From contig WGNN01000037.1 of NCBI GenBank assembly GCA_016124515.1, forward strand, positions 13,171 to 77,170: DNA of 64,000 nucleotides, written 5' to 3'. The position numbers and the translations under genes were made by a program. Position 1 is the stretch's first letter. Every line of letters starts with the position of its first letter. The notes beneath the pieces were generated by a model. It was given only the letters and a program-made list of their open reading frames with translations, had not been told where the DNA came from and made no database searches. Origin of the DNA: a bacterium (lineage in GTDB: Bacteria; Bacteroidota; Bacteroidia; CAILMK01; JACPUW01). Of the stretch, positions 2,425 to 24,262 are shown piece after piece.

Positions 2425-2494
2425 ATACGCCCAAACCGTGGTTTTGGTTCAGGAAATATGTAAACCATTGGTTTTTAGCAGCCGCTGTTCCGGC

Positions 2495-4717: not shown

Positions 4718-4989
4718 GAAAATGGCTCTTTTATGCGGGATGCGTGTGTTTGGTGTCGCAGCCAAAAATAGGCAGTGTTGGCAAGAAATAGCCCATGTTT
4801 GGCATCTCTACTTTTCAAATTGGTTAATTGTTTTGGCCATCCTGCGGCATTCAACAAAATGAAGGGTTTATATGTTTTCCATTTCAATTGAGCCATAATG
4901 CATAAAATACAAGGCCTTTCAACAGCAATTTAAACGATGAAAACAAGTGCAAATAGTGACGAATAAATCTTGGTGGTTGCGCCTTTGCG

Positions 4990-5826
4990 ATGGTAACATT
5001 GTGGCAGGATTTGACACAAAAACAAAAGCCTATGCCAACCGGTGATTTAAGTAAGATGAAAACCCGCTATGCCAAACCCATAGAATACAGCCTGCTGTTG
5101 GGCGAGGAAAGCATTGACATGAACAAGCTGCTGGGGCAGGAAATTTCGCTTCGCTACACCGGCACCATACACTGCGTATCGTGCGGCAATGTGACCAAAA
5201 AATCGTTTGGACAGGGTTTTTGCTACAAATGTTTTATGAACAGCCCCATGAATGCCGAATGCATTGTGCGGCCCGAACTGTGCGAAGCCCACTTGGGTAA
5301 GGGCCGCGATGCCGCATGGGAAGAAAAAAACCACAACCAACCGCATATTGTGTATTTGGCTTTTACCGACTGCACCAAAGTGGGTGTGACCCGTGTGGAC
5401 CAAATACCCACGCGATGGATAGATCAGGGTGCCTGGAAGGCGATAATTTTGGCCGAGACGCCCTACAGGCAAATAGCGGGGCAAATAGAAGTGGCCATGA
5501 AAGAATATTATAAAGACAAAACCAACTGGCGCAGCATGCTCAAAAACGAGGTGGACGAAGCCTTGGATCCCGTGGCCGAAAAGGAGGAAGCCCTGGAAAT
5601 GTTTCCCCCCGAATTTGAAGAGTTCTACACCGACAACAACACCATATATGAGTTTGAGTATCCGGTTTTGCAGTTTCCCACCAAAGTAAACAGCATAAAC
5701 CTGGAAAAAATAAACGAAGTGGAAGGCCGTTTGGTGGGCATAAAAGGACAGTATTTGCTACTGAGCAACAACCGCGTGCTGAACATTAGAAACCACAGTG
5801 GTTTGGAAGTGGAAATTATGTACTGA
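4990..5826 (+). CDS. DUF2797-like Cys-cluster protein
   Basis: 278-aa ORF. The Cys cluster CVSCGNVTKKSFGQGFCYKCF matches my memory of DUF2797. Alternative ATG at 5032. Confidence 0.6.
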   Translation: MVTLWQDLTQKQKPMPTGDLSKMKTRYAKPIEYSLLLGEESIDMNKLLGQEISLRYTGTIHCVSCGNVTKKSFGQGFCYKCFMNSPMNAECIVRPELCEAHLGKGRDAAWEEKNHNQPHIVYLAFTDCTKVGVTRVDQIPTRWIDQGAWKAIILAETPYRQIAGQIEVAMKEYYKDKTNWRSMLKNEVDEALDPVAEKEEALEMFPPEFEEFYTDNNTIYEFEYPVLQFPTKVNSINLEKINEVEGRLVGIKGQYLLLSNNRVLNIRNHSGLEVEIMY

Positions 5827-5851
5827 TGTAAAAAGGTACCCCATTGCATGC

Positions 5852-7030
5852 TTATTCAACTGCTTGGAGTTCCCATTGGCCCGAATTCCGCTGCAGGATT
5901 AACTGTTCTATTGGTTTCAAACCATAAAACTCCATTCTCTTTTTGCGCTGCTTATCTTCAAGCTTGTTGTAGTTTCTTGAAACAAACAGGTACTGGACAG
6001 GATCATCATATTCAACAATAACTATACACGTCCCATCCTCTCGTGGCTGTACATCCTCAACTTTGAAATTCGGCACTTTACGATTAATCAACCCGTAACT
6101 GACATGATAATCTGCTAATTCTGTTTGCTCCTCAAACAAAAATGCCTTAAACAAATCCAGCTTAAATGAGCTTTCCAACTGATAATCGCCAGGAACAATA
6201 CCCGCCGTTGTCAAATTCTTTTTAAACTGTATTTCCTCTATACCATTGGAAAAAGAATAATAGTTGCGCTGGTACTTAGCTGTTTTCTCGTATGGAACAC
6301 AGCTGCGAATCAAATGATTTATGGTAACTTCTTGGGTATGCGGATAGGCATCCATCAGCCCCTTGTGCTGGGCATTAATCCACTCCAGGCACTGATTTAT
6401 GCGGCCTCGAATAATTTTATTAATTCTGACTTGATTTGGAAAAGCGATTTCTTTAGGAATCTCAATACGAACTGTTTTCCCGGGCTCAGCATTCTGTAAA
6501 TTTACCAAAGTATCATAACTACCCCAGTGTACTTTCACATTGCGGCTATCACTGTCTCTGTTTCGATAAAAAGGAAGAAAAAATGAACCTGAGTTGTTTG
6601 TTGTAGATATCTGGTCATATTCTGACAGGCTTAGCTCAGCGCCAACCACTGGTTCACCGGAAAGAACAACGTAGCCTTCAATGAAATCATAATTAAACTG
6701 GCAGTCATCGCTCAATACCAAAGATGCGGGGTTGGTTAAATATGCAAGACTAAAAGTACCCAACATCCATAACAACTTAAGAGGTACCCAATTTTCATTT
6801 TTAATAAATACCAATAACCCAATTGACATCCCTGAAATACCCGCGGCAAGTGCAATGCGCAAAACACTGTACTGCGCGCGGGTAGGACAAGGCACGGCAA
6901 ATACAATACACAGAACCAAAACAAACAGGAGGGTACCAAAAGCAACAGTTACCCAGCCTGATTTGTAATTGACAATCATATCGCGAAGTGCGATAAATCT
7001 ACCAGCTATACTATGATTAGCCTTACCCAC
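5852..7030 (-). CDS. Membrane protein with carboxypeptidase-regulatory-like beta-sandwich and unknown C-terminal domain
   Basis: 392 aa with three N-terminal hydrophobic helices. The segment IEGYVVLSGEPVVGAELSLSEYDQISTTNNSGSFFLPF resembles CarboxypepD_reg; the remainder is unrecognised. Its start shares one nucleotide (7030) with the HNH gene stop. Confidence 0.6.
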   Translation of the reverse strand: MGKANHSIAGRFIALRDMIVNYKSGWVTVAFGTLLFVLVLCIVFAVPCPTRAQYSVLRIALAAGISGMSIGLLVFIKNENWVPLKLLWMLGTFSLAYLTNPASLVLSDDCQFNYDFIEGYVVLSGEPVVGAELSLSEYDQISTTNNSGSFFLPFYRNRDSDSRNVKVHWGSYDTLVNLQNAEPGKTVRIEIPKEIAFPNQVRINKIIRGRINQCLEWINAQHKGLMDAYPHTQEVTINHLIRSCVPYEKTAKYQRNYYSFSNGIEEIQFKKNLTTAGIVPGDYQLESSFKLDLFKAFLFEEQTELADYHVSYGLINRKVPNFKVEDVQPREDGTCIVIVEYDDPVQYLFVSRNYNKLEDKQRKKRMEFYGLKPIEQLILQRNSGQWELQAVE

Positions 7031-7335
7031 TATCTATGACCATATTTACAAGTCCAATTGGGATAGTCATCTCCTTTGTGACGGTTGTTTTCCCACTGAA
7101 GTGGCTGCAGGTTAGAAATGTTATCATCTCCTCCCTTGGCTCTGGGTTTTATGTGGTCAATTTCCCATCCTGTCACCAATTCCCTACCGTGGTTAGTGCG
7201 AATAATCCTGACTCCACATGTGTCCATGCGCTCTACATTTGGATCTTTGCCGGGAATTGGAGTTCCCTTTTCCCAAACAGCATCTTTTTGGCTTTCGCTA
7301 AAGGATAGGCCACTTACTGTTTTGTTTCTACTCAT
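7030..7335 (-). CDS. Small stand-alone HNH endonuclease
   Basis: HNH core GWEIDHIKPRAKGGDDNISNLQPLQWENNRHKGD. ATG at 7335 is preferred over the track's GTG at 7395, which would read through direct-repeat element A. Confidence 0.8.
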   Translation of the reverse strand: MSRNKTVSGLSFSESQKDAVWEKGTPIPGKDPNVERMDTCGVRIIRTNHGRELVTGWEIDHIKPRAKGGDDNISNLQPLQWENNRHKGDDYPNWTCKYGHR

Positions 7336-7394
7336 TGTACTTGATTTAAAAATTTGATGCAAGATTTGCTCATTTGGTTTGGTATAGAAATTCA

Positions 7395-7424
7395 CTTTCT
7401 GAATGGCAACTTTTTCTTTCTGAA
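7395..7424 (-). promoter_or_regulatory. Direct-repeat element A (LytTR-box-like): CTTTCTGAA-N12-CTTTCTGAA on + strand
   Basis: Perfect 9-mer at 7395-7403 and 7416-7424 with a 12-nt spacer (tggcaacttttt). It lies 59 nt upstream of the HNH ATG (7335). Confidence 0.55.
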
Positions 7425-7451
7425 AGAGGTGAGCAACACGTCACAGCCAGC

Positions 7452-8489
7452 TCAATGTGATAAATATGGCACTTCGTGTGAAGTAACAATAACTTTTTTA
7501 ACGTCTCTCACAGCCCAGGTTTCTTCCAAAATAACGGCTGCAACTTCAATCGTTACGTTAATACCATACAAACGATCCGGATTTTTAATGCCAATGTAAA
7601 ATATTCCAGAGTTCAAATCGGTAATTTTAACAACTCCTGATTTAATATTTTGTCTGGAACCTATTGTTTTGTAATAAAAAGTTCCACCATTATTGTCAAC
7701 CTTTTGCTCAAACATGCGTGAATTATTGAAATCAAGAAGATATATATCACATACATTTCCTCCCGGGGGTGTTGTCAACATGCTAAGCGCAAAACCTAAT
7801 GACCCTGTTTGGTCCAGGGCGCTGGTAAGCTCACCTACCAGATTTAATCCACCAGTAGTTTTTTTTATCTGTTGTTCATCTCTATCCGCAGAAAATGTAT
7901 AGTACCATTCAACAGTGCCCGCGGGTAATTCAACGGGAATGGTTATTCTGGATGAACCACCTTTAAACAAACTATTACTACCGCTATTGATGTAGAAATA
8001 TTGTGGAGCCTGTACGCTTTTCGTAATGTACTTTTTTTCAACCAGATACTTTTCCTGTACAGTATAAAATGAAGAATCATGCTCAGTTCTCCAGTACACT
8101 TGTGGATTGAAGGAACTAAGGCTATCATGAGCAGGTGTGCGGGTAATGCTTAGTTGGCAAACCCGTTTTGCAACATTGGCATTATAAAGACGAATCAAGT
8201 AAATACCTGTTTCAACCGGCGTAAATGTAAAGGTAGAATTTGTGGTTTCATAATCTATAAAAAGCGAATAGTCGGGATATTGGTAGATCTCAATTTCCTT
8301 CAGGTCTTTACGGTCCTCTACACTTAGACTGACGTTTACCTGATCTCCTTTCGCAAATCCGTAATACAGCTTTTCCGATGTAAGCCCTGATACTTTAATG
8401 TGTAGGCTTGCAACAACAATTGGATCAAGCGCTAGTACAGATTGCCACAATACCGAAAAAAGAATTAGTAAATTAACTTTTTGCATCAT
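7452..8489 (-). CDS. Secreted hypothetical protein (beta-rich)
   Basis: 345 aa with an N-terminal signal peptide (MMQKVNLLILFSVLWQSVLA). No recognisable motif. Start overlaps the upstream gene's end by 17 nt. Confidence 0.6.
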   Translation of the reverse strand: MMQKVNLLILFSVLWQSVLALDPIVVASLHIKVSGLTSEKLYYGFAKGDQVNVSLSVEDRKDLKEIEIYQYPDYSLFIDYETTNSTFTFTPVETGIYLIRLYNANVAKRVCQLSITRTPAHDSLSSFNPQVYWRTEHDSSFYTVQEKYLVEKKYITKSVQAPQYFYINSGSNSLFKGGSSRITIPVELPAGTVEWYYTFSADRDEQQIKKTTGGLNLVGELTSALDQTGSLGFALSMLTTPPGGNVCDIYLLDFNNSRMFEQKVDNNGGTFYYKTIGSRQNIKSGVVKITDLNSGIFYIGIKNPDRLYGINVTIEVAAVILEETWAVRDVKKVIVTSHEVPYLSH

Positions 8490-9525
8490 AGTATTTGGTT
8501 GTTTCTATCAAATGTTCTGAAAAGTTATATATGTCGCTGGGCCTATTAATCTGGATTCTGTTTTCCGTCTTTTCATTATCAAACAGTCCAATGTATTTGT
8601 TTTTTGAATTGAAATGTAATCTGCAAATCGGTTTGCGGTTTGTGTTGTCAAGTAGTACTCCAAAATAAGATTGGGTATCTCTTGCAAAAACTCGCTCCGA
8701 GTCAATCACTTTACAAACAATAGCTTTTACAATATTGAAACCTTCTATTTCTTCTTCAGTTGTTATGATTTTTGAATCATTTTGATTATCTGGTTCTGAC
8801 TGTTCCTTTTGTTCATCAGTTTCCTTTTTAAGTGCCTTTTTGAGTCTATCGTTTATGATTTCATTAATATGCTGTGAGATGGCTTTTTTTATAAAATTTG
8901 AAAACTGTTCAACCAGCTTAGACGTGACCTTTCCGGTATATACTTGTTTGGCCAAAAATCTGGTAAACTCTTCAGATGGATTCGAAAACTCGTCTTCCAA
9001 CAATTTGCGCAGCGATTTGGTATATTTCATGTTCCCGGCAGCGTCAATAATGGTATTGACATCAAAGCTTGATTTGTGAAACTTAGCCAATTCTTGAATA
9101 TCAGAATCTTTGAGATGTTCTAGGTCAACTTCAAGAAATGGACGGGCATCCATTTTATTGTCATTTTCCAAGTCTGAAAAGAAAAGATATTTGACACCAT
9201 TAGTCAATAAAGCGAATCTGGATTGGGTAACTGCAAAATAGCGATACAATTGGCTATTATGGGCTTCCAAGTTCTCTTCCCAGTATTTGCATTCTATTAT
9301 TAGTATTGGATTTCCATCTTGAAGTAAAGCATAATCCACTTTTTCACCCTTTTTTGTGCCAATATCTGCTGTAAATTCAGGTTGAACTTCATCAGGGTTA
9401 AATACATCATATCCCAAAAGGGCTATAAAGGGCAAAACAAAGGCTGTTTTGGTAGCTTCTTCGGTTTGGATGTTGGCTTTGTATTCTTCAATTTTCTGGC
9501 TTAAGGCTTTCAGTGCTTCTTCCAT
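8473..9525 (-). CDS. HsdR_N (type I restriction enzyme R N-terminal / PD-(D/E)xK-like) domain protein
   Basis: N-terminal EEATKTAFVLPFIALLGYD...KVDYALLQDGNPILIIECKYW matches the HsdR_N-type nuclease fold motif (D...E-x-K). 350 aa, with no methylase or specificity genes nearby. Confidence 0.7.
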   Translation of the reverse strand: MEEALKALSQKIEEYKANIQTEEATKTAFVLPFIALLGYDVFNPDEVQPEFTADIGTKKGEKVDYALLQDGNPILIIECKYWEENLEAHNSQLYRYFAVTQSRFALLTNGVKYLFFSDLENDNKMDARPFLEVDLEHLKDSDIQELAKFHKSSFDVNTIIDAAGNMKYTKSLRKLLEDEFSNPSEEFTRFLAKQVYTGKVTSKLVEQFSNFIKKAISQHINEIINDRLKKALKKETDEQKEQSEPDNQNDSKIITTEEEIEGFNIVKAIVCKVIDSERVFARDTQSYFGVLLDNTNRKPICRLHFNSKNKYIGLFDNEKTENRIQINRPSDIYNFSEHLIETTKYYDAKS

Positions 9526-9567
9526 ATTGTAAGCTTTGATTTGATATATTCAAATAAATGAGGATTT

Positions 9568-9846
9568 TTATTGATAATCCTTATTATTTCCTGTCGGTGA
9601 TGTTGTTAAATTTACTATTACATTTGGGGTTTGATTCATTTTACCTGGTCCTATGTATCCATGCATTAAATTGTAATTATCTACCATGCTACTTAAGATA
9701 AATAAGTCGATTATCCACCCGATTCCGAAGAGCTGAAATGTTATAAGATAGAGTATCCCACTTCCAATTTTTCCGAGGTAAAATCTATGTAGGGAAAAAG
9801 CTCCAAGTAGGAACCAAAGCAAGTAAGCTACGCCTTTTGATTTCAT
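9568..9846 (-). CDS. TM2 domain membrane protein
   Basis: 92 aa; KGVAYLLWFLLGAFSLHRFYLGKIGSGILYLITFQLFGIGWIIDLF is the typical TM2 two-helix motif. Confidence 0.8.
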   Translation of the reverse strand: MKSKGVAYLLWFLLGAFSLHRFYLGKIGSGILYLITFQLFGIGWIIDLFILSSMVDNYNLMHGYIGPGKMNQTPNVIVNLTTSPTGNNKDYQ

Positions 9847-9852
9847 AATAGT

Positions 9853-10137
9853 TTATTTTTTACAAGTTTTACTTTTATTAGCGGAAACAAGGTTAGTACC
9901 TGGAACCAGTTCTACGCTTCCAGATGCTCGGTTGTGTACATTGCAGAATGGTACAATGTACCAGTTGTCGTCATAGGTCTCATCTTTCTGTACATGTGCG
10001 CCGACAAGGTCGGACCGGAAACATCCACTTGCTCTACATATTGTTGCGGTTTGGTTACTGTAATTTCTCCAATGCTGGAGCCAACTGCCACAATTACACT
10101 TATTCTGTGATGTTCCATTAATATTTTTAACTTTCAT
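9853..10137 (-). CDS. Cys/His-rich 94-aa protein, possible zinc-binding beta-beta-alpha-Me (HNH-like) mini-nuclease
   Basis: CNCGSWLQHW...CRASGC...GAHV...WYIVPFCNVHN. ATG at 10137. The stop is 6 nt from the TM2 gene start. Confidence 0.6.
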   Translation of the reverse strand: MKVKNINGTSQNKCNCGSWLQHWRNYSNQTATICRASGCFRSDLVGAHVQKDETYDDNWYIVPFCNVHNRASGSVELVPGTNLVSANKSKTCKK

Positions 10138-10184
10138 GATTTTTCGCTCAAAAATTCACATGTGACAGATCAAAAGGAACTTAA

Positions 10185-10214
10185 TTTTCCGAACGGCGTA
10201 ATTTTCCTTCTGAA
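10185..10214 (-). promoter_or_regulatory. Direct-repeat element B: TTTTCCGAA-N12-CCTTCTGAA on + strand
   Basis: Two related 9-mers with 21-nt periodicity and spacer cggcgtaatttt. It lies 47 nt upstream of the ATG of the 94-aa gene. Confidence 0.5.
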
Positions 10215-10222
10215 AGGTAGAT

Positions 10223-10699
10223 TCATATCTCTTTATAATTCCATTCCACACTTAAAACTAGTACGATTTCGCTACTATCATTCCGCAGAGTAATCTCCCT
10301 CTTTCCTTCATAGTCCTTTGGCGTAAACAGATAACCTCCCATGTATTCATCACCACTGGTACTGTCATAGTCCCATAAACCTATACTATGTTGCAATGAG
10401 TAATTATCTACATATACAGGCAAATTCCTGATGTAATTATAGGTATTGGAGTTTACACACTCATCATAGTATTCACTGGTATAAAATCTATTACCATTAA
10501 GCACAATAGCAACATAGATATCAGGGTAACTTGACCATATGTCCCAATCCTTGCCATTATTGGTGTTGGGAAACCCAGCTACTGATATTTTATTAATCTG
10601 CATTTTAGAGAGTACTAAGTTAGGCTCATCATCAGTTTGACAAGATGCCACAAAAGCAAGCATTGACACAATAAAGAAAAAAATCAAATTTCTTTTCAT
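10223..10699 (-). CDS. Hypothetical lipoprotein
   Basis: 158 aa; signal peptide plus lipobox (LAFVASC). No recognised domain. Confidence 0.6.
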   Translation of the reverse strand: MKRNLIFFFIVSMLAFVASCQTDDEPNLVLSKMQINKISVAGFPNTNNGKDWDIWSSYPDIYVAIVLNGNRFYTSEYYDECVNSNTYNYIRNLPVYVDNYSLQHSIGLWDYDSTSGDEYMGGYLFTPKDYEGKREITLRNDSSEIVLVLSVEWNYKEI

Positions 10700-10704
10700 T
10701 GGTA

Positions 10705-11127
10705 TTAATCTTTTAGGATTTCAATAGATGTTTTCTTATTAGTGAGCCAATAAGCGACTCCCCCATGATGTGAGCACGTTCCGCTGCCTGTTGATGAACT
10801 GCTAGATCCATCACGGCACTGAGCTCCGGTCCTAACGTAATATGTGTGGTATATTGCCTTACCAAGACATACTTGGTTTGCTAATATATAGCCTGTATCA
10901 AGATCGTATGACACTTTGAGCCATTCGTTTTCAACTTTCTGAAGGACAATTAGGTTATCGTACTGTTTCAGTGTTCGCTTTGCTTCTGCATCGGCTGTGG
11001 GCCTTTGCCTGAGTTTTGCATAAGAAACAGAAACGTAATAATTTTGTGCGGTTTGAGCCAGTGTTGAAAACACCAAGCCAACAAAAATCAATGTAATAAT
11101 TAATATATGGTTTTTCATAACATTCAT
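10705..11127 (-). CDS. Secreted SH3b-like + DUF3761 protein
   Basis: Signal peptide, then an SH3-like segment (YVSVSYAKLRQRPTADAE...EWLKVSY), then a DUF3761 signature (CRDGSSSSSTGSGTCSHHGGVAYWL). Confidence 0.65.
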   Translation of the reverse strand: MNVMKNHILIITLIFVGLVFSTLAQTAQNYYVSVSYAKLRQRPTADAEAKRTLKQYDNLIVLQKVENEWLKVSYDLDTGYILANQVCLGKAIYHTYYVRTGAQCRDGSSSSSTGSGTCSHHGGVAYWLTNKKTSIEILKD

Positions 11128-11354
11128 TTACACAACCATTTTTCTACCCCACCATGCCCTGAACAAGCCCCGCTTCCGGTGGCTTTGCTAAAAGTGCCGT
11201 CCTTGCATTGACAGCCTATTCTGTCGTTTTCTCCGTAGATGCACTCATGAGAGCCCTTAAAATGGGGATCTTCCGATTCAATTGTTTTTGAGCAACAAGC
11301 ACTCACGCACAAAAAGATAAATATTGATAGTGACTTAAGCATCGGCTTTGTCAT
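11124..11354 (-). CDS. Secreted DUF3761 protein
   Basis: 76 aa; signal peptide; CQCKDGTFSKATGSGACSGHGGVEKWLC. 4-nt overlap with the downstream gene. Confidence 0.65.
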   Translation of the reverse strand: MTKPMLKSLSIFIFLCVSACCSKTIESEDPHFKGSHECIYGENDRIGCQCKDGTFSKATGSGACSGHGGVEKWLCK

Positions 11355-11775
11355 TTATAAGTGCGGCTCTTTCAACTTGATTTATAAATTCAATAACCCT
11401 TTTCCTGCCCATGCGCGTTGTATGAAACCTCACAATATCTCCGCCCATTGTAGCTATGGTAAAATAATGTCTTCTGGTAAGAAAATAAGCCAATAATCCA
11501 GTCATACCCGTTAATAGCCCGGCAGCGGTAATAAAATCCTCCCTTTCAGATGCGCCATAACTTGCAATGAAAATGCCGGCGACAAGAACTAATAGAAGTG
11601 CGGGACGACTTTTATATGCCACTGTAATAGATGCCATCCTTGAAAGCAACATGCTTACTACATGGGCACGCCCCCATGACGAGTCATGATACCTCAACCT
11701 TAAGTTGGTTAATGTTATCAGTTTGTTTTCAGATTGGGTAATTATTTCTTCTCCTGGTATATATTCTATACTCAT
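11335..11775 (-). CDS. Membrane protein with bacterial PH-like organisation
   Basis: 146 aa. N-terminal beta segment (ITQSENKLITLTNLRLRY), two central hydrophobic helices, and a C-terminal segment (GGDIVRFHTTRMGRKRVIEFINQVERA). Overlaps both neighbours. Confidence 0.5.
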   Translation of the reverse strand: MSIEYIPGEEIITQSENKLITLTNLRLRYHDSSWGRAHVVSMLLSRMASITVAYKSRPALLLVLVAGIFIASYGASEREDFITAAGLLTGMTGLLAYFLTRRHYFTIATMGGDIVRFHTTRMGRKRVIEFINQVERAALINDKADA

Positions 11776-12650
11776 ACTTGATTTCCTTTATTATTAATAT
11801 TTATAGTCATATCTCTCGATGAAATGTACTTGCCTTTTACAGTAGTGTTCTTTCCCAGAAAAACCGCTCCGGAGTTTTCAATAACAGTATGGTTTTTTGA
11901 TGTACTGTTTTCAGTAATTTTTGCACCCACTTTGTTTATAGTTAAAATATATTGCATTGCAAGTGCAAGATGTTCAGTAGTTATTATTTGCTCTTGTGGC
12001 AACTCCGGAAAAACTGACTTTAGCTCATCAATATCAGCATCATACCACAGTGGAATTACCAGCGCGTTAATATCTTTATCCAACTCATAAAACACTTTCA
12101 ATTGATCATAAAATGAACTTATAAAAAATTCTTGGTTAAGAATAAGCAAACACTTTTTGCCTTTAACAATTTTTCTAAAATTGCAACCACCCTTACAATC
12201 TATAAGCTCAAACTTTAATTCCGGCTCCTGTCCTTGGTATAAAGAGTTTTTTACCTGTGGATTAATAAATTTCTCATCTTCCGGATTGCAAATAATATGT
12301 ATAAAATCATCAACCACTTGGTTTGTTGGATATAAAACAATAGATTTTTCCACCTTTAACAACCATTCATTAAAATCTTTAAAATTCTCGTATCCAAGAT
12401 AATTGCAAAGCTTATCCACTTTGTCTTTCCCCAAGGAGATAGTTGACGAGTTCGGATCAGATGCCCGCTCAATAGGTTTTACAACATGCTCATCAAGGTA
12501 TCTCTGATTAATTTCCGTTTCTTCTGGCTTATAACCATCATTTATTTTCATTTCTAATTCAAGCAGACCACTCCTCGAAAGGTCTGTACCGGCTTTTGCT
12601 GCCGCCATTTTAATGATAATAGAAATCTGCTTTACTGAAAAACTGGGCAT
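11772..12650 (-). CDS. Hypothetical cytoplasmic protein
   Basis: The track ORF extends to 12794, but the first ATG is at 12650 (MPSFSVKQ...). The upstream extension overlaps the regulator gene and contains element C. No motif recognised. Confidence 0.55.
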   Translation of the reverse strand: MPSFSVKQISIIIKMAAAKAGTDLSRSGLLELEMKINDGYKPEETEINQRYLDEHVVKPIERASDPNSSTISLGKDKVDKLCNYLGYENFKDFNEWLLKVEKSIVLYPTNQVVDDFIHIICNPEDEKFINPQVKNSLYQGQEPELKFELIDCKGGCNFRKIVKGKKCLLILNQEFFISSFYDQLKVFYELDKDINALVIPLWYDADIDELKSVFPELPQEQIITTEHLALAMQYILTINKVGAKITENSTSKNHTVIENSGAVFLGKNTTVKGKYISSRDMTININNKGNQV

Positions 12651-12702
12651 GAGTAAACATTTGTTCGCAAAATGAAACACATGCCAACTTTGGGCAAACC
12701 TA

Positions 12703-12732
12703 TTTTCTAAACGCCGTAAATTTGTTTCTGAA
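12703..12732 (-). promoter_or_regulatory. Direct-repeat element C: TTTTCTAAA-N12-GTTTCTGAA on + strand
   Basis: 21-nt periodicity; spacer cgccgtaaattt is nearly identical to that of element B. It lies 52 nt upstream of the ATG at 12650. Confidence 0.5.
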
Positions 12733-12738
12733 CGACAT

Positions 12739-13476
12739 CTAAATGGTTGGGAACATTGACTTGACTGACTCAATATAAGTTTTCCCGATATCAATTTTGT
12801 CAGCGCCTATCATTACTCTATTGCCATCCAACCCTGTGATATGGTCAAGATTTACAATATGGCTTTTGTGTATTTGTCTTAACCTATGGTTTATTGAGTG
12901 AGACTCTATTTGCCTCATAAACTTTGCCATGCTGATTGACAGGCTATATGTCTTATGAACGGTATGAACTTCACAGTAAGAAGAATCGGCATCTATCCAG
13001 GTAACATCATAGATACTTACCTTTTCGTAGGTATCTTTAGACTTTAAGAAGATACAGTCATCATAGAGATGTTCTGCCTTTTTGATAGAACCCACCATAT
13101 CGTTGTGGTAATCCATTGCCAATTCAATAGCCTGAGTCAAATTAAGATTAGACACTGGTTTGGTCAGATAAGCAAACGGCCTTGATTCTTTTGCCTTATT
13201 GAATGTTTCAATATTATCTAAATGGGTAAGAAAAACAATAGGAATGTTCCATTGTTCCTTTATCTCTTTTGCAGTTTCAATACCATTTTTATCACCTTTT
13301 ATTTCAATATCCATCAAAATCAAATCAGGTAACCTTTTCCTTATAGCATCAAAAGCTAAACCCGCACTGTCGGCAACATCAACAGATGAATAGCCAAGCC
13401 GTGACAGCTTGTTGGTAATATCAGCAGCTACCAAAAACTCATCTTCAACTAAAAGAATTCTAACAGGAGAAACCAT
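12739..13476 (-). CDS. Response regulator, receiver + LytTR DNA-binding domain
   Basis: ILLVEDE, DLILMDIEIKGDKNG and FLTHLD are receiver motifs. C-terminal LytTR motifs are VTWIDADSSYCEVHT...LRQIHKSHIVNLDHI. ATG at 13476 is preferred. Confidence 0.85.
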   Translation of the reverse strand: MVSPVRILLVEDEFLVAADITNKLSRLGYSSVDVADSAGLAFDAIRKRLPDLILMDIEIKGDKNGIETAKEIKEQWNIPIVFLTHLDNIETFNKAKESRPFAYLTKPVSNLNLTQAIELAMDYHNDMVGSIKKAEHLYDDCIFLKSKDTYEKVSIYDVTWIDADSSYCEVHTVHKTYSLSISMAKFMRQIESHSINHRLRQIHKSHIVNLDHITGLDGNRVMIGADKIDIGKTYIESVKSMFPTI

Positions 13477-13533
13477 ACCTAATGCTTTTAACCAAAACAA
13501 AGTTAGAAAGATACGACAACAATCTGTCCACAA

Positions 13534-13563
13534 AATTTAAAACGCTGTAAAATAATGTTTTAT
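13534..13563 (-). promoter_or_regulatory. Degenerate copy D of the direct-repeat element
   Basis: AATTTAAAA-cgctgtaaaata-ATGTTTTAT. The spacer is clearly related to B and C, but the half-sites are weak. It lies 57 nt upstream of the regulator ATG (13476). Confidence 0.3.
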
Positions 13564-13764
13564 GCGGTTCATATTCCTTGTTCACGTCTCGGTTTTGTTT
13601 ACTACAAAATTCAATCGGATATTTTTGACAATGGAGTCGCGACACATCTGTAGGCAGGCAAAACGCCAATACTCTTTGACAGGCCAGAATAGTTTTATCT
13701 CCCCTACCCTTCACTTATTCTTTGATTAAAGGAGTTCACCGCTTCTGATTATCCTGAATTTGAG

Positions 13765-13782
13765 AGCCAATTGCAATTGGCT
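13765..13782. promoter_or_regulatory. Perfect 18-bp palindrome AGCCAATTGCAATTGGCT in the divergent intergenic region
   Basis: Read directly from the sequence. It lies between the divergently transcribed LytTR regulator and TPR kinase genes. Confidence 0.4.
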
Positions 13783-13922
13783 TATTCAATGGACACTACC
13801 AAATAGTAAGTAGCCTTGATTTCGTCTGCGTTGTGCATCCCTTATTTTTGTGCATGAACTACACTGCAAACATTTTGATGTACCACGCCATGATTACACT
13901 TCATAGTTAAACTTTGCTTACA

Positions 13923-15806
13923 ATGGTTAAGCCAAAAAATATAGCAGACATTCCAAAGGTGCTCATTTTACCGTTAATCTTAATCCTGGCAAACTGCCAA
14001 CTGAGTGGTCAGGAAATAAATGACCTTTCAATCATTAAAAAAAAGCAGGAAAACATAAGAAAACTGATCGAAGAAAAACAATATACACCCGCTCTTGAAA
14101 TTGCAGAAACGATAGTGCAGTTGGGTAGAAAACAAGAAAACATATATTGGATGGCATTGGGTTGGGCACACACAGGAGAGATATACCAAAAACAAAAGAA
14201 AAATAAAATTGCACTGGAGTACTACGAACGAATTTTATCTACTCAACATCAATGGAGTAATGATGCATTCCTATTAAATGTTATATACAATATTGGATTA
14301 ACTCATAAACAAATGTCAAACCTTGATTTGGCATCTTCATATTTTCACGAATTTCTTGAGATAGAACGTCAGTCAGAGTTAAAGCACCCGGAATGGACAG
14401 CCAAAGTATATGATGCGCTTGGAAATATTCAACGTGAACTGAAAGAGTTTGACAAATCACTGCGATACCATTTCAAATGCCTGAAAATAGTTAAACCAGA
14501 GAATGACTTCGCAATAATGGCAACGTCATACAACAACTTAGGCCATACATATATGGACATGGGAAAACCTGATTCTGCCAGATTCTTCATCAATAATTCC
14601 ATTAGACTCAAAAGAAAAATTAATAGCAATAATAATTTGGGTTATTCCTATCACCTGTTGGGGAAACTCTATTATGACCTTGACCAGACAGATAGTGCTT
14701 CTATATATCTTTGGATGGCCCGAAAACTACACGATGCGGAAGGCCAAACAGATCAATGCACTTATGTTTTAGTTGATTTGGCAAAAACACAATTATTAGC
14801 CGGAAAACCCGACTCAGCACTATTTACCATTGAAAGTGCACTGAACATTGCACAGAAAATTGACAGTAAAGATTTGTTGGCTCTTGCTTACCGACAAAGA
14901 AGCTATATATATGAAGATCTGAGCAACTTGAAAGGTGCTCTCCGAGACATGGAATCATATGAGCCTTTAAGAGAAGAAATATTGGACGAAGTCAGACAAC
15001 ATGCCCTTTCAGAGCTTGAAATCAAATACCATTTAAATGAAGCAAAGGAAAATCTGCTCGTTGAAAAAGAGAGGCTACAGCTGAGCACTGCACGTGTTAG
15101 TAACCAACGACTATGGATATTGGTTTTGGTTTTGGCGGTTGTTGTAATGGCTCTTTTTGTATATATTCTTAGAAGCAATGTAAAAAAGGAACGACAACTA
15201 AAAGAACAAGAGAAAAAGCTCCTGAAAGAACTTCATCACAGAGTAAAGAATAATTTAAGCAACCTGTCGGGTTCTCTGGCCATTCAAGTCGATATGGCAA
15301 GTAACTCTAATGTTATTGAAGCACTGGAAAACCATAGAAAACGATTAGATGCAATTGCCCTTCTTCACGAAGAACTTTTTGATCCGGCCGGCTCCGAAAG
15401 AAAATCTCAGGTTGACTTCACTGCATTTGTAGAGAAATTATGCCAAAGCATTATAAGTGCAAGTATCTGGAATAACAAAATTGACCTTGAGTTGAAATTG
15501 GATAAAGTAAGTCTTCCAATGAATGAGGCAATTCCACTTGGCATGATGGTTAATGAAATAATTACAAATGCAGTTAAGCATGCATTCGCTGAAGTAAAAT
15601 CACCATCACTGGAAGTGATCTTGTCAAAAAATGAAGACTTTATTATTGAAATAAAAGACAATGGAATTGGTTTCAAAGATAATATCCTTCCACAGTCAAC
15701 ATCTGTAGGCATGGCAATCCTCACAGGCCTGGCTTCTCAGTTAGACGCTAAACTATTATTTGAGAGTAAATCCGGTTTAAAAGTGAGCATAATATTGAAT
15801 AAATAA
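13923..15806 (+). CDS. TPR-repeat sensor histidine kinase (HisKA_2-type H-box + HATPase_c)
   Basis: N-terminal signal/TM, multiple TPR-like repeats, coiled coil, and a TM helix (LWILVLVLAVVVMALFVYIL). H-box ELHHRVKNNLSNLSGSL. ATPase boxes MMVNEIITNAVKHAF and KDNGIGF. First ATG at 13923; the track start at 13914 is TTG. Confidence 0.85.
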   Translation: MVKPKNIADIPKVLILPLILILANCQLSGQEINDLSIIKKKQENIRKLIEEKQYTPALEIAETIVQLGRKQENIYWMALGWAHTGEIYQKQKKNKIALEYYERILSTQHQWSNDAFLLNVIYNIGLTHKQMSNLDLASSYFHEFLEIERQSELKHPEWTAKVYDALGNIQRELKEFDKSLRYHFKCLKIVKPENDFAIMATSYNNLGHTYMDMGKPDSARFFINNSIRLKRKINSNNNLGYSYHLLGKLYYDLDQTDSASIYLWMARKLHDAEGQTDQCTYVLVDLAKTQLLAGKPDSALFTIESALNIAQKIDSKDLLALAYRQRSYIYEDLSNLKGALRDMESYEPLREEILDEVRQHALSELEIKYHLNEAKENLLVEKERLQLSTARVSNQRLWILVLVLAVVVMALFVYILRSNVKKERQLKEQEKKLLKELHHRVKNNLSNLSGSLAIQVDMASNSNVIEALENHRKRLDAIALLHEELFDPAGSERKSQVDFTAFVEKLCQSIISASIWNNKIDLELKLDKVSLPMNEAIPLGMMVNEIITNAVKHAFAEVKSPSLEVILSKNEDFIIEIKDNGIGFKDNILPQSTSVGMAILTGLASQLDAKLLFESKSGLKVSIILNK

Positions 15807-15827
15807 AGGGGGCGTACTGCCCCCTTT
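15805..15827. terminator. Bidirectional hairpin between convergent genes
   Basis: AAAGGGGGC-gtact-GCCCCCTTT is a 9-bp perfect stem, A-rich on the 5' side and T-rich on the 3' side. It sits directly after the kinase stop. Confidence 0.6.
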
Positions 15828-15849
15828 AACTACTCCAAACCGAGCAATT

Positions 15850-16275
15850 CTACAAAACCAACTGAATGGTAAAGGTTGTATCACTTTGATAAAAATGATA
15901 TGCCGAAGTATATTGAACACTTCCTCCCACAGGTGTAACACCGAAATAATACCAACCAGGATTTACCTGAATTGCAAAATCGCCGTTACTATCTGCAAAA
16001 GTTCCTCCCACCGAAATTGAAGTCAAATTATCAAATACTTCAACTGCAGCACCACCGATAGGATCGAGGTTTTGATCAACTAATGATATAAAACCTATTG
16101 GGTCTTCCTCGTCTCCACCACAACAATCAAATCCCGTGTCCATAGTCATATCAACAACGTTGCAGGTGTCTATGTGTGGGCCATTCATTAACTTACCAGA
16201 AGGCCCGGAGCTACTTATACCAATAAACAAAACAGCAATAAAAGGCCATGTAAAAGAAAAAAGATATTTTTTCAT
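15850..16275 (-). CDS. Small secreted protein with carboxypeptidase-regulatory-like fold
   Basis: Signal peptide follows the ATG at 16275 (MKKYLFSFTWPFIAVLFIGISS). The segment LVDQNLDPIGGAAVEVFDNLTSISVGGTFADSNGDFAIQVNPGWYYFGV is CarboxypepD_reg-like. Confidence 0.5.
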   Translation of the reverse strand: MKKYLFSFTWPFIAVLFIGISSSGPSGKLMNGPHIDTCNVVDMTMDTGFDCCGGDEEDPIGFISLVDQNLDPIGGAAVEVFDNLTSISVGGTFADSNGDFAIQVNPGWYYFGVTPVGGSVQYTSAYHFYQSDTTFTIQLVL

Positions 16276-16873
16276 GATTTTAGATTTTATGCCCTTTCTC
16301 AGGAAGAATATGGATATACCATCCCCTGGCATATTTAAATGCATAAAAAGAGCTATTAGTAAAAAATTTGATCTCTCGGCCTTTTACACAACAGAGTTCC
16401 GGCTATCTGTCAAGTAATCAGCCTGCTACCCATTCATCATATTATCTCAATTTTATTCATTGAACTTTCGCTGTACGATATAGCAACCTTGTTGACTTAA
16501 AGTACTCGTCCAAACTCATTTTTTTGAGCATTGTGTGATGGCCATCATTTTTCTGATTAATTGATCTTGCCGACTATATGATCAGAGCTATTAATCAGTT
16601 AGTTGATGAATGAATCATGGTTCAAATATCTGATGTTGAATTGTGATGACCTTCCGGGGAATTTCCTTAGAAATCCCGGGAATTATAAGTAAATAACATA
16701 CTCATTCATTTAATTATGAAGTTATGTGAGATCTGCTTTGGTAACCAAGAAGTTTCCATGCTGCAAAGTGAGATGCCGCTATGTATAACACACACGCTAT
16801 AATTCAGGAGGCAACAATATTTTTGATGCATTGCTCCTGTATTTGTTTCTTTGCAGTCTTGCTACATTTACTT

Positions 16874-17653
16874 ATGAGCCATGTAAAACATTTGGAACTG
16901 AAACCCAACGACGGCCAAACCTGGGTGATTGGCGACATACACGGCTATGCCAAAACTTTTGAAACCGTCATGCAAAAAATAGCTCCTTCGGCTACAGATC
17001 GCGTGATTTTGCTCGGCGATTTGGTGGATCGCGGACCCGACTCAAAAGGGGTGTTTGATGCTATAATGCGCTATAGAAAAGAAGGTGTTGACCTGCTGCT
17101 GGTGCGCGGCAACCACGACGACCTGATGCATAAAAGCTATGTGGAAGAGCAGGAAAACACCGGCTTTTTAAAATTTATAAAACGCGACTACACCAAGCGA
17201 AGCTGGATAAACATGGGCGGCGACACTACCTTGCAGAGTTTTGGCGCCAAAAAAATGGTGGAAATCGATACCGTTTATTATGATTTGATAGAAAGTATGT
17301 ACCACTACATTGAAGACGAAAACCATTTGTACGTACATGCCGGTTTTGATTTCACCCAAGCACAACCCTTTGAAAATGAACAGGCCATGATGTGGATTCG
17401 CGATTTTAAACCGGATAAAAAGCAAACGAAAAGCAAAACCATAGTGCACGGCCACACACCACTTGACCTTGAATTTATTACAGATGTAATTGAAAACGCG
17501 GGCAGCTACGGATTTATAGCACTCGACAACGGAATATCTATAGACAAGCAAAAAAATAAAGGCCATTTATTGGCTTATGAAACCAAAAGCAAAAAACTCA
17601 TTGTACAGAGCCGGCAAGATGCCGCCACCGGCGCGGGCAAATATGGGTATTGA
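16874..17653 (+). CDS. Metallophosphoesterase (PPP-family Ser/Thr phosphatase / ApaH-like)
   Basis: Motifs GDIHGY, LLGDLVDRGPDS, RGNHD, VHGHTP. Internal ATG at 16874 is preferred over the hydrophobic N-terminal extension. Confidence 0.8.
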   Translation: MSHVKHLELKPNDGQTWVIGDIHGYAKTFETVMQKIAPSATDRVILLGDLVDRGPDSKGVFDAIMRYRKEGVDLLLVRGNHDDLMHKSYVEEQENTGFLKFIKRDYTKRSWINMGGDTTLQSFGAKKMVEIDTVYYDLIESMYHYIEDENHLYVHAGFDFTQAQPFENEQAMMWIRDFKPDKKQTKSKTIVHGHTPLDLEFITDVIENAGSYGFIALDNGISIDKQKNKGHLLAYETKSKKLIVQSRQDAATGAGKYGY

Positions 17654-17655
17654 GC

Positions 17656-18396
17656 CTACTCGCCATAGGCGCAATGAAAAAATTGGCTGAGTGTATCGGC
17701 TCCGCACACAATTTTAAACCTGAGAATTTCGCCGTAGTTCAAATCTGTTACGGGTATTATTTTTCCGGTTGAAACGGCCTTCAAATACGCATCTGAATGC
17801 ATGTTTCTGATATCGGCGCGTGTAATTGCCTGTGTATGTTGCTCCAAAAAATGAAGGCTGATTTTGTACCAATACAAGTGGTTGTTTATGTTGTAAAACA
17901 CTGTCTTATATGCACTTCCATTAATGTACAAAGCAGGAAAGTGGCTGCCAGCACTGCCCTGCACACCCGGTGTAAATACCGCTATATAGAGGTTGGTAGC
18001 CGGATTCCATTCAGCTCCGTTGGGGCCGCCCCCATGATGCCCGAAAAGGTTGTCCAAATCCTTGTTAGCCTCTATATCGTTTGATTTTTGTCTCAGCCAT
18101 TTCATAACTTCTGCTGAATCGGCACGCGCATTTTTATCGTCCAACTCATAAAAACAATAGGCGGCCATTTTGCCTGAATCCTCGTGGTTCAATTCAGGGC
18201 TCTTTTCTTCAACCATTTCTACCGTTGCCCTTTTTTTGCAGGCAGTTGAGCTTGCAAGCAAAAGGAAGGCAATAGCAAGTGCATTAATGAAATGGTGGGA
18301 GGTGGTGGATGGTTTTTTATGTGTTCTCACCAAAAATTGATTTTGCCAAACATACGGCAAATTGGTCTGTGGTATGTTGGCGATAGAATAAAACAA
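17656..18396 (-). CDS. Hypothetical lipoprotein
   Basis: 246-aa ORF with a lipobox-like LLLASSTAC. No recognised domain; start uncertain. Confidence 0.5.
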   Translation of the reverse strand: MFYSIANIPQTNLPYVWQNQFLVRTHKKPSTTSHHFINALAIAFLLLASSTACKKRATVEMVEEKSPELNHEDSGKMAAYCFYELDDKNARADSAEVMKWLRQKSNDIEANKDLDNLFGHHGGGPNGAEWNPATNLYIAVFTPGVQGSAGSHFPALYINGSAYKTVFYNINNHLYWYKISLHFLEQHTQAITRADIRNMHSDAYLKAVSTGKIIPVTDLNYGEILRFKIVCGADTLSQFFHCAYGE

Positions 18397-18475
18397 GCAG
18401 GTGTGAAACTTCTAGTCGATGTTTTCATTCATGGTTCTAAAATACTCTGAGACAACTTTACTTAAGTCAGGCTCC

Positions 18476-19237: not shown

Positions 19238-19288
19238 TATACCAGCTTGGTTGGTTTCTTGGTTGTGCGATTTACATGATTTCAATTG

Positions 19289-20886: not shown

Positions 20887-20919
20887 TAATTTATTAATGA
20901 TTTCATTCGCACTCCAATT

Positions 20920-21594: not shown

Positions 21595-21600
21595 CTATTC

Positions 21601-22026: not shown

Positions 22027-22297
22027 ATTGTTGTTCTATAAGTTCGAAATGAATGAGTGGTGCTTGAAACATTTCAGTCACCATACATAGTTTTGGTTTG
22101 GAAATGTAGCACCAAAATGGTTTATACGGTTGTTGTTGCGCAGATTTTTATTTGAGTGGATGGGTATTGCTTTCCTTTAAGGCTGGTAGTAATTCTTTCA
22201 GGACTTTTAAGTGTGCATATCCCTTTTTAAGGCAACCTAGCTTTTAATAAGGCGTGGCGCCATCAGATTTTTCTACCAATTGCCTGCCGATTGTGGT

Positions 22298-22522: not shown

Positions 22523-22610
22523 TAGAGTACGTTTTATAAATATTTTGCCAATATAGTTGATTTTCAAATAATTCCCGTTTTTATATGCAGCATTTTCGCT
22601 ACGTGGCGAA

Positions 22611-24260: not shown

Positions 24261-24262
24261 AA

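Follow-up and report, generated by a model that had tools for sequence, protein, structure and literature searches.

Transcriptional regulators of the LytTR family classically control bacteriocin and quorum loci, many Gram-positive bacteriocin loci among them, and the operators that they bind consist of two short direct repeats with a period of ∼21 bp, as is the case for AgrA, ComE, and AlgR. Here we describe a block of genes that carries a regulator of this type together with its kinase, and that lies in a stretch of 64,000 nucleotides (the window) of contig WGNN01000037.1 from the Bacteroidota assembly GCA_016124515.1. We read positions 5827-16780 of the window as a horizontally acquired, self-regulated cassette of ∼11 kb that forms a single LytTR regulon and has an inducible role in conflict or envelope surveillance, a reading that, taken as a whole, we consider evenly poised between right and wrong.

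Besides the LytTR regulons, three kinds of described systems come close to what the cassette appears to encode. One is the TIR-based immunity represented by Thoeris ThsB, PADLOC PDC-S66, and TIR-TM proteins. In the second, EAD coupling, a small nonenzymatic module present on two proteins of the same operon brings an effector to the core of the system (Kaur, Burroughs, Iyer, and Aravind 2020, PMC7159879), and that paper mentions neither LytTR nor two-component control. The third is that of the BASS, NLR-associated amyloid motifs, in which one protein carries a short motif C-terminally and its partner in the cluster carries it N-terminally (Dyrka et al. 2020, bioRxiv 10.1101/2020.01.06.895854). 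No description of the cassette itself was found in PADLOC, Pfam, NCBIfam, Rfam, or the literature searched; its components are largely undescribed, while the kinds of thing that it combines, namely two-component-controlled accessory regulons and modular conflict proteins, are known.

At least six other lineages keep the same gene order, the chromosomal site varying among them, and these metagenomic cassettes (loci L020-22, L023, L024/25, L027, L028, and L029, with orthology assigned by tblastn) provide the comparisons made throughout. The regulatory part of the cassette consists of the following features of the window:

13914 to 15806, plus strand: sensor histidine kinase (Pfam HisKA_2, 1.4e-17; HATPase_c, 3.4e-8; TPR)
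12739 to 13476, minus strand: response regulator with REC and LytTR domains, 245 amino acids (aa) from ATG 13476 (Pfam Response_reg, 2.3e-19; LytTR, 5.6e-10; gene call in L026)
12704 to 12732, minus strand: box P1, TTCAGAAA-N13-TTTAGAAA, an exact match that aligns with its counterparts in six other lineages
10186 to 10214, minus strand: box P2, TTCAGAAG-N13-TTCGGAAA, with 2 mismatches
7396 to 7424, minus strand: box P3, TTCAGAAA-N13-TTCAGAAA, an exact match

The kinase opens with a signal- or lipobox-like peptide, continues with TPR repeats that are predicted to be periplasmic, and ends, after one transmembrane (TM) helix, with the HisKA_2 and HATPase_c domains. Its homologues are 25-35% identical and stand divergently beside the regulator in every cassette, so that the pairing of a REC-LytTR regulator with an adjacent cognate kinase, known from AgrCA, ComDE, AlgZR/FimS-AlgR, and PlnBCD, is kept in all of them.

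The box pattern, TTYAGAAA-N13-TTYAGAAA, was found by aligning the spacer between the regulator and the 292-like gene from seven lineages. In the window, P1 lies 7 bp past the stop codon of the regulator and ∼55 bp upstream of the gene for a 292-aa protein, P2 lies ∼50 bp upstream of a gene for a Cys/His-rich protein, and P3 lies ∼60 bp upstream of the ATG (7335) of an HNH endonuclease gene, all three being on the gene strand and in intergenic spacers. They divide the genes into three groups: P1 is followed by the genes for the 292-aa protein, a 146-aa membrane protein, a 76-aa lipoprotein, a 140-aa secreted protein, and a 158-aa lipoprotein; P2 by those for the Cys/His protein, a TM2 protein, a 350-aa endonuclease, and a 345-aa secreted protein; and P3 by those for the HNH endonuclease and a 392-aa membrane protein. 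Other lineages conserve the box upstream of their 292-like and HNH-containing units, with counterparts of P3 in L020, L023, L024, and L027 and a related, degenerate box at 11215-11243 of the distant cassette L029; P2 belongs to the lineage of the window only, no equivalent appearing in other cassettes at up to 3 mismatches. With up to 2 mismatches, 0.65 matches are expected by chance per 64 kb, and none of 100 shuffles reached 4 matches. The cassette-free relative L001 has no such box. A fourth two-mismatch match of the window, at 41304-41332 and outside the cassette, is probably one of chance, given the 0.65 expected.

Ten promoter regions align nearly gap-free from the box to the ATG, with constant spacing and a conserved TTTG-type element between the two. 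Because of this alignment, the start of the HNH gene is placed at ATG 7335, which most likely gives a protein of 101 aa in place of the 121 aa of the original prediction; the open reading frame (ORF) can be extended to 7395, but the extension would overlap box P3. The regulator and kinase genes themselves have no upstream box at up to 2 mismatches, and a scan for sigma-70 promoters, whose models do not extend to Bacteroidota promoters, returned fewer matches than shuffled sequence. Paired direct repeats of 21-bp period placed just upstream of the core promoter, as in described LytTR regulons, are accordingly present in the window and in six other lineages, and from this we infer that the block forms one LytTR regulon. 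The original prediction had placed the block under one putative regulator and credited it with its own two-component pair, and both statements held.

In its regulatory layer, the cassette is a genuine two-component regulon of the LytTR type rather than an Agr/Com quorum circuit. The kinase is of the TPR-HisKA_2 type, with a large, predicted periplasmic sensor, unlike the polytopic HPK10 peptide receptors; the Agr and Com consensus sequences differ from TTYAGAAA; and, unlike Agr and Com loci, the cassette has no autoinducing peptide, AgrB, or ComAB-type exporter, the family scans of its proteins having found no AgrB, AgrD, ComAB, or ABC-peptidase domain. An Agr-like quorum locus was rejected on the missing peptide and exporter genes.

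The same scans bear on a second explanation, a cluster for interbacterial antagonism of the toxin/immunity or bacteriocin-like kind, in which exported Cys-rich proteins and nucleases would hit competitors and membrane proteins would confer immunity, all under LytTR control. The small exported Cys-rich DUF3761 proteins, the variable cargo in the middle of the cassette, and the fast divergence of part of it would suit such a role. Yet the family scans detected neither a peptidase-domain export ABC transporter nor an autoinducing-peptide gene nor a delivery domain of the type VI secretion, type IX secretion (T9SS), or Rhs type, the exported proteins have no recognizable toxin domain, and both nucleases are without signal peptides. 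In addition, the conserved DUF3761 protein is among the slowest-evolving of the cassette (65-68% identity), unlike polymorphic toxins, and altogether we regard antagonism as improbable.

That the block is an island follows from its composition and from its absence elsewhere. Positions 5827-16780 (island A) have 37.3% G+C as against 44.3% for the backbone, both being whole-region values; the contrast peaks at third codon positions, where the G+C (GC3) is 0.339 ± 0.031 for 13 block genes and 0.499 ± 0.048 for 28 backbone ORFs (Mann-Whitney p = 5e-7). Counted per kb, the G+C is 0.353-0.404 over 6001-17000, and 0.43-0.50 in most of the remaining window. The closest relatives that were found are Bacteroidia and Flavobacteriales-type metagenome-assembled genomes, and in the two nearest, L001 and L002, the DUF2797 gene directly adjoins the metallophosphoesterase gene; in other words, the flanks of island A are present without the cassette. 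After the metallophosphoesterase gene, both relatives carry homologues of the window's 25214-25786, of PaaD, and of a large kinase. The window therefore holds two insertions relative to L001 and L002, island A and a second one, island B. The cassette thus combines the two marks of an island, an unusual composition and a site that is empty in relatives. The G+C of the cassette is close to that of its flanks in other lineages and 7 points below its flanks only here, pointing to a donor of lower G+C and to an arrival that is comparatively recent, the nearest relative being only 76% identical (the DUF2797 protein of L001). The proteins of the window are deposited under the style "hypothetical protein GC194_044xx [bacterium]".

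Much of the original prediction concerned this layout, and most of it stood. An AT-rich accessory block had been proposed, and the per-kb G+C profile and the empty site in both relatives agree with it; the contrast with the flanks was correctly seen, although the 48-50% G+C given for these is too high as an average. The ORF coordinates also confirm twelve minus-strand genes running from 13476 down to 5852, whose junctions overlap by 17 nt (8473-8489) and 20 nt (11335-11354) in two cases, by 4 nt each in two others (11124-11127 and 11772-11775), and by 1 nt at 7030. The right edge had been set at 16344, and it moves, since the unit runs on to ∼16780 and takes in a conserved noncoding element at 16276-16686. 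The borders lack mobility genes, as had been stated: the whole 64-kb window is free of tRNA genes, none of the ORFs scanned in 1-27000 has an integrase or transposase domain, and searches for flanking direct or inverted repeats at the island borders gave chance-level matches only.

Island B (17654-25213) is a low-GC insertion as well (G+C 0.396, GC3 0.43), flanked by the metallophosphoesterase gene on one side and by gene 25214-25786 on the other, and unrelated to island A. It holds about 10 minus-strand genes of unrelated types (lipoproteins, OmpA-like, Glyoxalase, DUF1059, DUF1398), including one for a 130-aa protein without family match, and no LytTR box.

These data also bear on the idea that the block is the remnant of a prophage or integrative element, or else a patchwork of unrelated accessory genes. 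The strong PHROG matches of the endonuclease and the TM2 protein, the low G+C, and the presence of an unrelated low-GC insertion next door (17654-25213) are what such an origin would leave behind. Against it, structural, replication, and integration genes are absent, and no relative of the 392-aa family was found in 2.9 million viral contigs; gene order is kept across divergent lineages, one motif stands at three promoters, and patchwork behavior is confined to the middle cargo segment. A prophage remnant was rejected for its missing phage core genes, and the explanation as a whole is largely refuted, leaving it, in our estimate, barely credible.

The comparison among lineages shows what the cassette is made of. 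Its core begins, in order, with a small secreted beta-sandwich protein, the TPR-HisKA_2 kinase (divergent from the regulator), the LytTR regulator, and a ∼290-aa protein, and continues with a ∼148-aa protein with two TM helices, a DUF3761 lipoprotein, variable small genes, a ∼344-aa secreted protein, the HNH endonuclease, and the ∼392-aa protein with three TM helices (3TM). This order is kept although the sequence identity among cassette lineages is only 16-67%. The flanking genes differ in each lineage (T9SS cargo; housekeeping genes such as TIM, L31, and PrmA; other two-component genes), and the cassette must therefore have been inserted on several separate occasions. The cassette of L028 is minimal, with neither the 345-aa protein nor HNH, while the distant L029, whose 39x protein is 16% identical to that of the window, keeps the small protein, kinase, regulator, 287-aa and 399-aa proteins, a 394-aa paralogue, and HNH, adds a patatin phospholipase, and lacks the 146-aa membrane protein and the 345-aa protein. 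Cargo specific to the lineage of the window comprises the SH3-DUF3761 protein, the Cys/His protein, and the HsdR_N endonuclease, and the TM2 slot and the 158-aa lipoprotein are common to some lineages only. The block is, on the sequence comparison, a conserved core with a variable middle segment of cargo, and not a chance mixture. The original prediction had treated the mixture as one unit of twelve genes, a view that needs revision given the variable cargo of the middle segment.

Several observations accompany this comparison. The genes fall into two strata. When L020, L023, L024, L027, and the window are compared, the distal products (392-aa, HNH, 345-aa, 76-aa, and 158-aa) share 52-72% identity, and the kinase, the regulator, the small secreted protein, and the 292-aa and 146-aa proteins share 25-52%, a difference that could come from rapid evolution in the sensing half or from recombination in the distal one. 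In L029, positions 11359-14062 hold, behind its second, degenerate box, the second 39x paralogue (394 aa), the HNH protein (125 aa), and the patatin-like phospholipase (381 aa). In three cassettes (L020 15033-15803, L023 15513-16283, L027 11252-12046), the 392-aa gene faces a convergent, conserved gene for a ∼256-aa lipoprotein without Pfam match; the window has DUF2797 at that position instead. The surroundings of the L023 cassette (1-6280 and 17138-20831) encode further kinases of the TPR-HisKA_2 type, another three LytTR regulators, and a TIR_2 protein of 200 aa, which suggests local clustering of paralogous circuits.

Two core proteins of the cassette are the main candidates for an effector layer:

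5852 to 7030, minus strand: 392-aa membrane protein in which a head motif (GRFIALRDMIVNY) on the cytoplasmic side is followed by 3 TM helices, then a beta-sandwich, and lastly a C-terminal domain
11772 to 12650, minus strand: 292-aa cytoplasmic protein with an N-terminal helical domain, an alpha/beta domain, and a C-terminal tail

The gene for the 392-aa protein overlaps the HNH stop codon by 1 nt at its start. Five homologous clusters were found among 5.8 billion proteins, and a profile search of 1.84 billion representatives returned 188 relatives, of which ∼25 are full length; the others share either the N-terminal module of 3TM and beta-sandwich or the C-terminal domain (residues 197-391). 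In the remote relatives, these modules are fused to TIR (59/125), EAD11 (4/125), or CHAT (1/125). The TIR domains are ThsB- or PDC-S66-like and are followed by exactly one TM helix and then by the C-terminal domain, and EAD11 precedes the 3TM module in P0101, P0108, and P0124. The one-TM architecture of the TIR relatives, together with Cys48 and Cys110, which are invariant in the family and lie in two segments predicted to be periplasmic, argues for a topology in which the N-terminus is cytoplasmic and the three TM helices are followed by a periplasmic beta-sandwich and C-terminal domain. Residues 13-103, the 3TM region, match PHROG 5814, of unknown function, with E = 1.3e-5, and phage proteins may carry the same membrane module.

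The 292-aa protein, whose gene starts at 12650, has 3 homologous clusters among 5.8 billion proteins, with ∼30% identity overall. Its family ends in an invariant tail, SGAVFxG..GKYISSRDMTINI, and the 39x family opens with GK[YF]IAxRD[ML]x[IV]N. A hidden Markov model (HMM) built from 39x heads only and run against 1387 ORFs finds the extreme C-termini of the 292 family in five lineages (E = 6e-4 to 3e-3) and, marginally, the 292-like tail of L028 (E = 0.07), all of them ahead of unrelated ORFs; it misses the tail of L029, whose likeness is seen by eye only. The two proteins are also joined in another way, as three relatives of the 392-aa protein (P0018, P0021, and P0025) have an N-terminal extension where others have TIR, and the first 100 residues of this extension are homologous to the 292-aa protein in P0018 (E = 4e-11) and P0021 (E = 1e-9), the similarity in P0025 being weak (E = 0.06, residues 62-206). 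The alpha/beta domain of the 292-aa protein aligns with TIR at an hhalign probability of 80% (E = 1.5e-5). In L029, the 292-like and 39x genes are adjacent and overlap; in the window they are 4.7 kb apart and in different transcription units. From the fusions and the shared motif we infer that the 292-aa and 392-aa proteins belong together. A third motif-bearing type occurs in the variable segment of L024 (12039-12278), a 79-aa protein with the head motif LNGTYTACRDIHISN directly before a TM helix.

With these proteins, the effector layer resembles TIR immunity, EAD coupling, and BASS pairing without their defining features. As in TIR immunity, remote relatives of the 392-aa protein have the order TIR, one TM helix, and C-terminal domain, and the alpha/beta domain of the 292-aa protein is at the TIR position of fused relatives, with a weak TIR alignment; unlike it, the cassette proteins have no TIR detectable with Pfam or PADLOC and do not conserve the catalytic Glu, and Thoeris differs further in that the block has no ThsA-like SIR2, SLOG, TM, or Macro partner and is under two-component control. 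The cassette shares with EAD systems the principle of one module on two proteins, and its 3TM and beta-sandwich relatives are fused to EAD11, but the shared element is a terminal motif of 15 residues and not an EAD domain, and a MoxR/vWA, STAND, or GTPase core is missing. As for BASS, the 292-aa protein does carry the motif C-terminally and the 392-aa protein N-terminally, the arrangement that defines such pairs; on the other side, the cassette encodes neither an NLR/STAND protein nor a Bell domain, and a TM region follows the N-terminal copy. NTPase domains, whether NB-ARC, NACHT, or of another type, were found in none of the cassettes.

The remaining genes of the block provide its possible outputs. 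They are, from the distal end to the proximal one:

7030 to 7335, minus strand: small cytoplasmic HNH endonuclease, 101 aa (Pfam HNH, 3.4e-7; HNH_4, 1e-6)
7452 to 8489, minus strand: 345-aa secreted protein with signal peptide, 62-65% identical in four other lineages
8473 to 9525, minus strand: 350-aa stand-alone endonuclease of the HsdR_N-type PD-(D/E)xK class (HSDR_N, 4e-15)
9568 to 9846, minus strand: 92-aa TM2 membrane protein (Pfam TM2, 3.8e-19; phrog_8793, 1.8e-23)
9853 to 10137, minus strand: 94-aa Cys/His-rich cytoplasmic protein, cargo of this lineage only
10223 to 10699, minus strand: 158-aa lipoprotein, 67% identical to L024 11550-12014 and shared with L024 only
10705 to 11127, minus strand: 140-aa secreted SH3_3 and DUF3761 protein (Pfam), cargo of this lineage
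11124 to 11354, minus strand: 76-aa DUF3761 lipoprotein, Cys-rich and exported (Pfam DUF3761, 23 bits, cutoff 29)
11335 to 11775, minus strand: 146-aa membrane protein with a PH/GLUE-like fold and an inserted hairpin of two TM helices

Homologues of the HNH endonuclease, of 94-125 aa, occur in L020, L021, L023, L024, L027, and L029. The 350-aa endonuclease is a full-length match of phrog_4225, annotated "endonuclease" (9e-133), and is 42-52% identical to phage or prophage genes of Porphyromonas, Enterococcus, Fusobacterium, and Pseudomonas; in one Porphyromonas phage, the homologue stands beside HicAB and an anti-CRISPR candidate gene. Its cassette copy is found in this lineage only and, judged from these homologies, it is a widely mobile cargo gene. 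Unlike the other stand-alone endonucleases of PHROG 4225, of which it is a full-length member, it lies behind box P2 and apparently within the LytTR regulon. A single-sequence search of the PDB with this protein gave no usable match. Type I restriction-modification was rejected, as there is an HsdR_N-type domain only and no HsdM, HsdS, or helicase domain.

Among the smaller proteins, the TM2 slot is taken by other TM2 proteins in L023 and L027, and only the DUF3761 tail of the 140-aa protein matches other cassettes. The 94-aa Cys/His protein had no significant family or PDB match in a single-sequence PDB search and one weak phage hit, the 158-aa lipoprotein no family match in Pfam, NCBIfam, PADLOC, or PHROGs, and the 345-aa protein none in Pfam, PADLOC, or the PDB. 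The 146-aa protein is 36-43% identical within the narrow clade. Family scans confirmed the domain labels that the original prediction had given (HNH, HSDR_N, TM2, SH3_3 with DUF3761, REC with LytTR, and TPR with HisKA_2 and HATPase_c). Three of its labels fared less well: the second DUF3761 protein falls below the Pfam cutoff on its own score, its homologues, 65-68% identical, being called DUF3761 in precomputed Pfam hits; "PH-like" for the 146-aa protein has as its basis the weak Vps36 GLUE hits of homologues; and no library backs "HNH-like" for the 94-aa protein.

Upstream of the core, at the right end of the cassette, are three more features:

15804 to 15828, no strand assigned: GC-rich terminator-like hairpin, an inverted repeat between the convergent kinase and small-protein genes
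15850 to 16344, minus strand: small secreted protein with signal peptide and a DCCGGDEEDP motif, a CarboxypepD_reg-like beta-sandwich
16276 to 16686, minus strand: conserved noncoding element of ∼410 nt upstream of the small secreted protein gene, a candidate structured RNA

The small secreted protein reaches 25.8 bits with Pfam CarboxypepD_reg, which is below the cutoff, and its homologues, 41-43% identical, have the same position in all cassettes. Its start is likely the ATG at 16275, giving 141 aa, as the N-termini of the homologues align from MKKYLFSF. It does not match the beta-sandwich of the 392-aa protein significantly with BLASTP (E = 3.3).

All narrow-clade cassettes have 450-650 bp of noncoding DNA upstream of this gene, and the element within it is conserved at the nucleotide level in five other lineages (L020 6442-6850, L023 6397-6806, L024 6348-6758, L027 1872-2265, and L028 4989-5334), the neighboring proteins being 25-45% identical. 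At its 5' end are tandem GGGAATTCCC palindrome repeats, which could equally be a protein-binding site. RNAalifold applied to six sequences, with the structure taken from the same alignment as the pair counts, predicts 86 pairs on the sense strand, 25 of them changed on both sides where column shuffles give 10.7 ± 2.4 and slid controls 10-14, as against 36 pairs with 7 compensatory ones on the antisense strand; the central domain has 44 pairs, 20 of them compensatory, and a favorable covariation term. Folding z-scores are -2.1 and -3.3. A covariance model, R1, finds exactly one copy per narrow-clade cassette and none in L029 or in unrelated loci, and Rfam gave no match at gathering thresholds, with chance-level hits only (E > 1) in a permissive search. 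Collectively, these data are suggestive of a structured RNA, either as the leader of the small-protein mRNA or as an independent RNA.

Within the element, L020, L023, L024, and L027 share a 35-aa ORF (M.CSS.H...VTDGHQHCQ; window ∼16540-16615), and a 23-nt core, GACCGATGGCCATCAACATTGCC, is identical in L023, L024, and L027 including the wobble positions, with one base different in L020. A small protein-coding gene in the element was rejected on the grounds of a stop codon in the window, third-position conservation, and strand-specific covariation.

Taken together, these parts allow a mechanism to be proposed. The TPR histidine kinase would sense an extracytoplasmic cue and phosphorylate the LytTR regulator, which would bind the three boxes and switch on the whole block, with the ∼410-nt structured RNA possibly adding a second, post-transcriptional layer of control. 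The core would be a membrane receptor/anchor pair: the 392-aa protein would expose its 15-residue head motif in the cytoplasm, and the fast-evolving 292-aa protein, whose C-terminal tail is the same motif, would dock to it, with its weakly TIR-like alpha/beta domain in the place that TIR takes in related proteins. Some relatives appear to fuse both proteins, and elsewhere a true TIR or an EAD11 adaptor would replace the 292-like part. The co-transcribed HNH nuclease, whose gene is translationally coupled to that of the 392-aa protein, would serve as an output along with interchangeable cargo, which here may comprise the PD-(D/E)xK endonuclease and the TM2 protein and, in the distant cassette, the patatin phospholipase. 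A role as an inducible module for envelope surveillance or conflict, whether anti-phage or anti-competitor, is speculative, and takes as its basis the association with TIR, EAD11, and CHAT fusions in remote relatives, with the L029 patatin, and with nucleases. In its most specific form, the proposal would be of an undescribed transmembrane immune or surveillance system, in which the 392-aa receptor recruits or templates its TIR-like 292-aa partner via a beta-strand, amyloid-like motif, with the HNH nuclease and the cargo as outputs and with the TPR-kinase/LytTR circuit and the RNA arming it on demand; this version we think unlikely.

The same products invite a different explanation, namely a regulon for envelope stress or cell-surface remodeling with no role in conflict, in which the kinase would sense envelope damage or an environmental cue, the regulator would induce proteins that repair or modify the envelope, and the nucleases would be passengers or act in DNA uptake or repair. 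Exported and membrane products, judged by eye, dominate the block (signal peptides in the 345-aa, 140-aa, and small proteins, lipoboxes in the 76-aa and 158-aa proteins, and TM segments in the TM2, 146-aa, and 392-aa proteins), the TPR sensor of the kinase is predicted to be periplasmic, no defense system or toxin/immunity logic was detected, and the regulon architecture is equally compatible with it. What this explanation leaves without an account is the recurrent fusion of the 392-aa modules to TIR, EAD11, and CHAT, the patatin and HNH of the distant cassette, the very fast divergence of the 292-aa protein, kinase, and regulator beside slow neighbors, and the patchy distribution at different sites with atypical composition. 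We hold it to be the less probable account, though one with a real chance of being correct. The original prediction had read the block as an inducible conflict or stress island; its conflict half draws on association, and the envelope-stress reading is compatible with the same data.

Turning back to the inducible conflict or surveillance cassette, a number of points weigh against it. The TIR, EAD11, and CHAT links belong to remote relatives and not to the cassette proteins themselves, the TIR-like call for the 292 family is weak, the position of the catalytic Glu is not conserved, and the shared motif, of only ∼15 residues, could be a relic of gene fission. The many exported envelope products fit a plain envelope-stress regulon equally well, and nothing in the block stands out as an immunity or antitoxin partner of the nucleases. 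A search of PADLOC-DB v2.0 with ten block proteins (the kinase, regulator, 76-aa, and small secreted proteins standing outside this set) identified no system, the hits being of the HNH protein to Cas9 HNH regions and, weakly, of the HSDR_N protein to DpdJ (E = 6e-4), which agrees with the original statement that no named defense system is matched. Six orphans of the core and cargo have no usable family or structure match in Pfam, NCBIfam, PADLOC, PHROGs, or the PDB. Structure prediction, a check proposed at the outset for the orphan proteins, was of limited help: the AlphaFold2 models, built from 6 sequences for the 392-aa protein and from 4 for the 292-aa protein, both have a mean predicted local distance difference test score (pLDDT) of 51.5, and the fold assignments therefore rest on sequence. 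In the 292-aa model, residues 1-100 alone are confident, a Foldseek search of that model against the PDB gave no match at E ≤ 0.001, and profiles of the 392, 345, 292, and 146 families found no usable match among PDB sequences. The binding of the regulator to its boxes is likewise deduced from the repeats and their placement. Finally, the close family of the 392-aa protein is very rare, with six clusters at 90% identity, mostly from seawater metagenomes; a metagenome scan with the narrow 392 alignment found 3 loci, one being the same contig as L021.

Most cataloged anti-phage systems are thought to be constitutive and to sense their trigger in the cytoplasm. If the proposal made here is true, the cassette would be a conflict module with a trigger sensed outside the cytoplasm and with a two-component system controlling its expression. 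It would also offer new handles for study: a periplasmic domain that is recurrently wired to TIR, a 3TM module wired to EAD11, a terminal motif that possibly couples two proteins in trans, a candidate structured RNA, and a defined LytTR operator for an uncultured marine lineage of Bacteroidota. If the cassette is instead an envelope-stress regulon, it would provide a regulatory context for about six orphan protein families.

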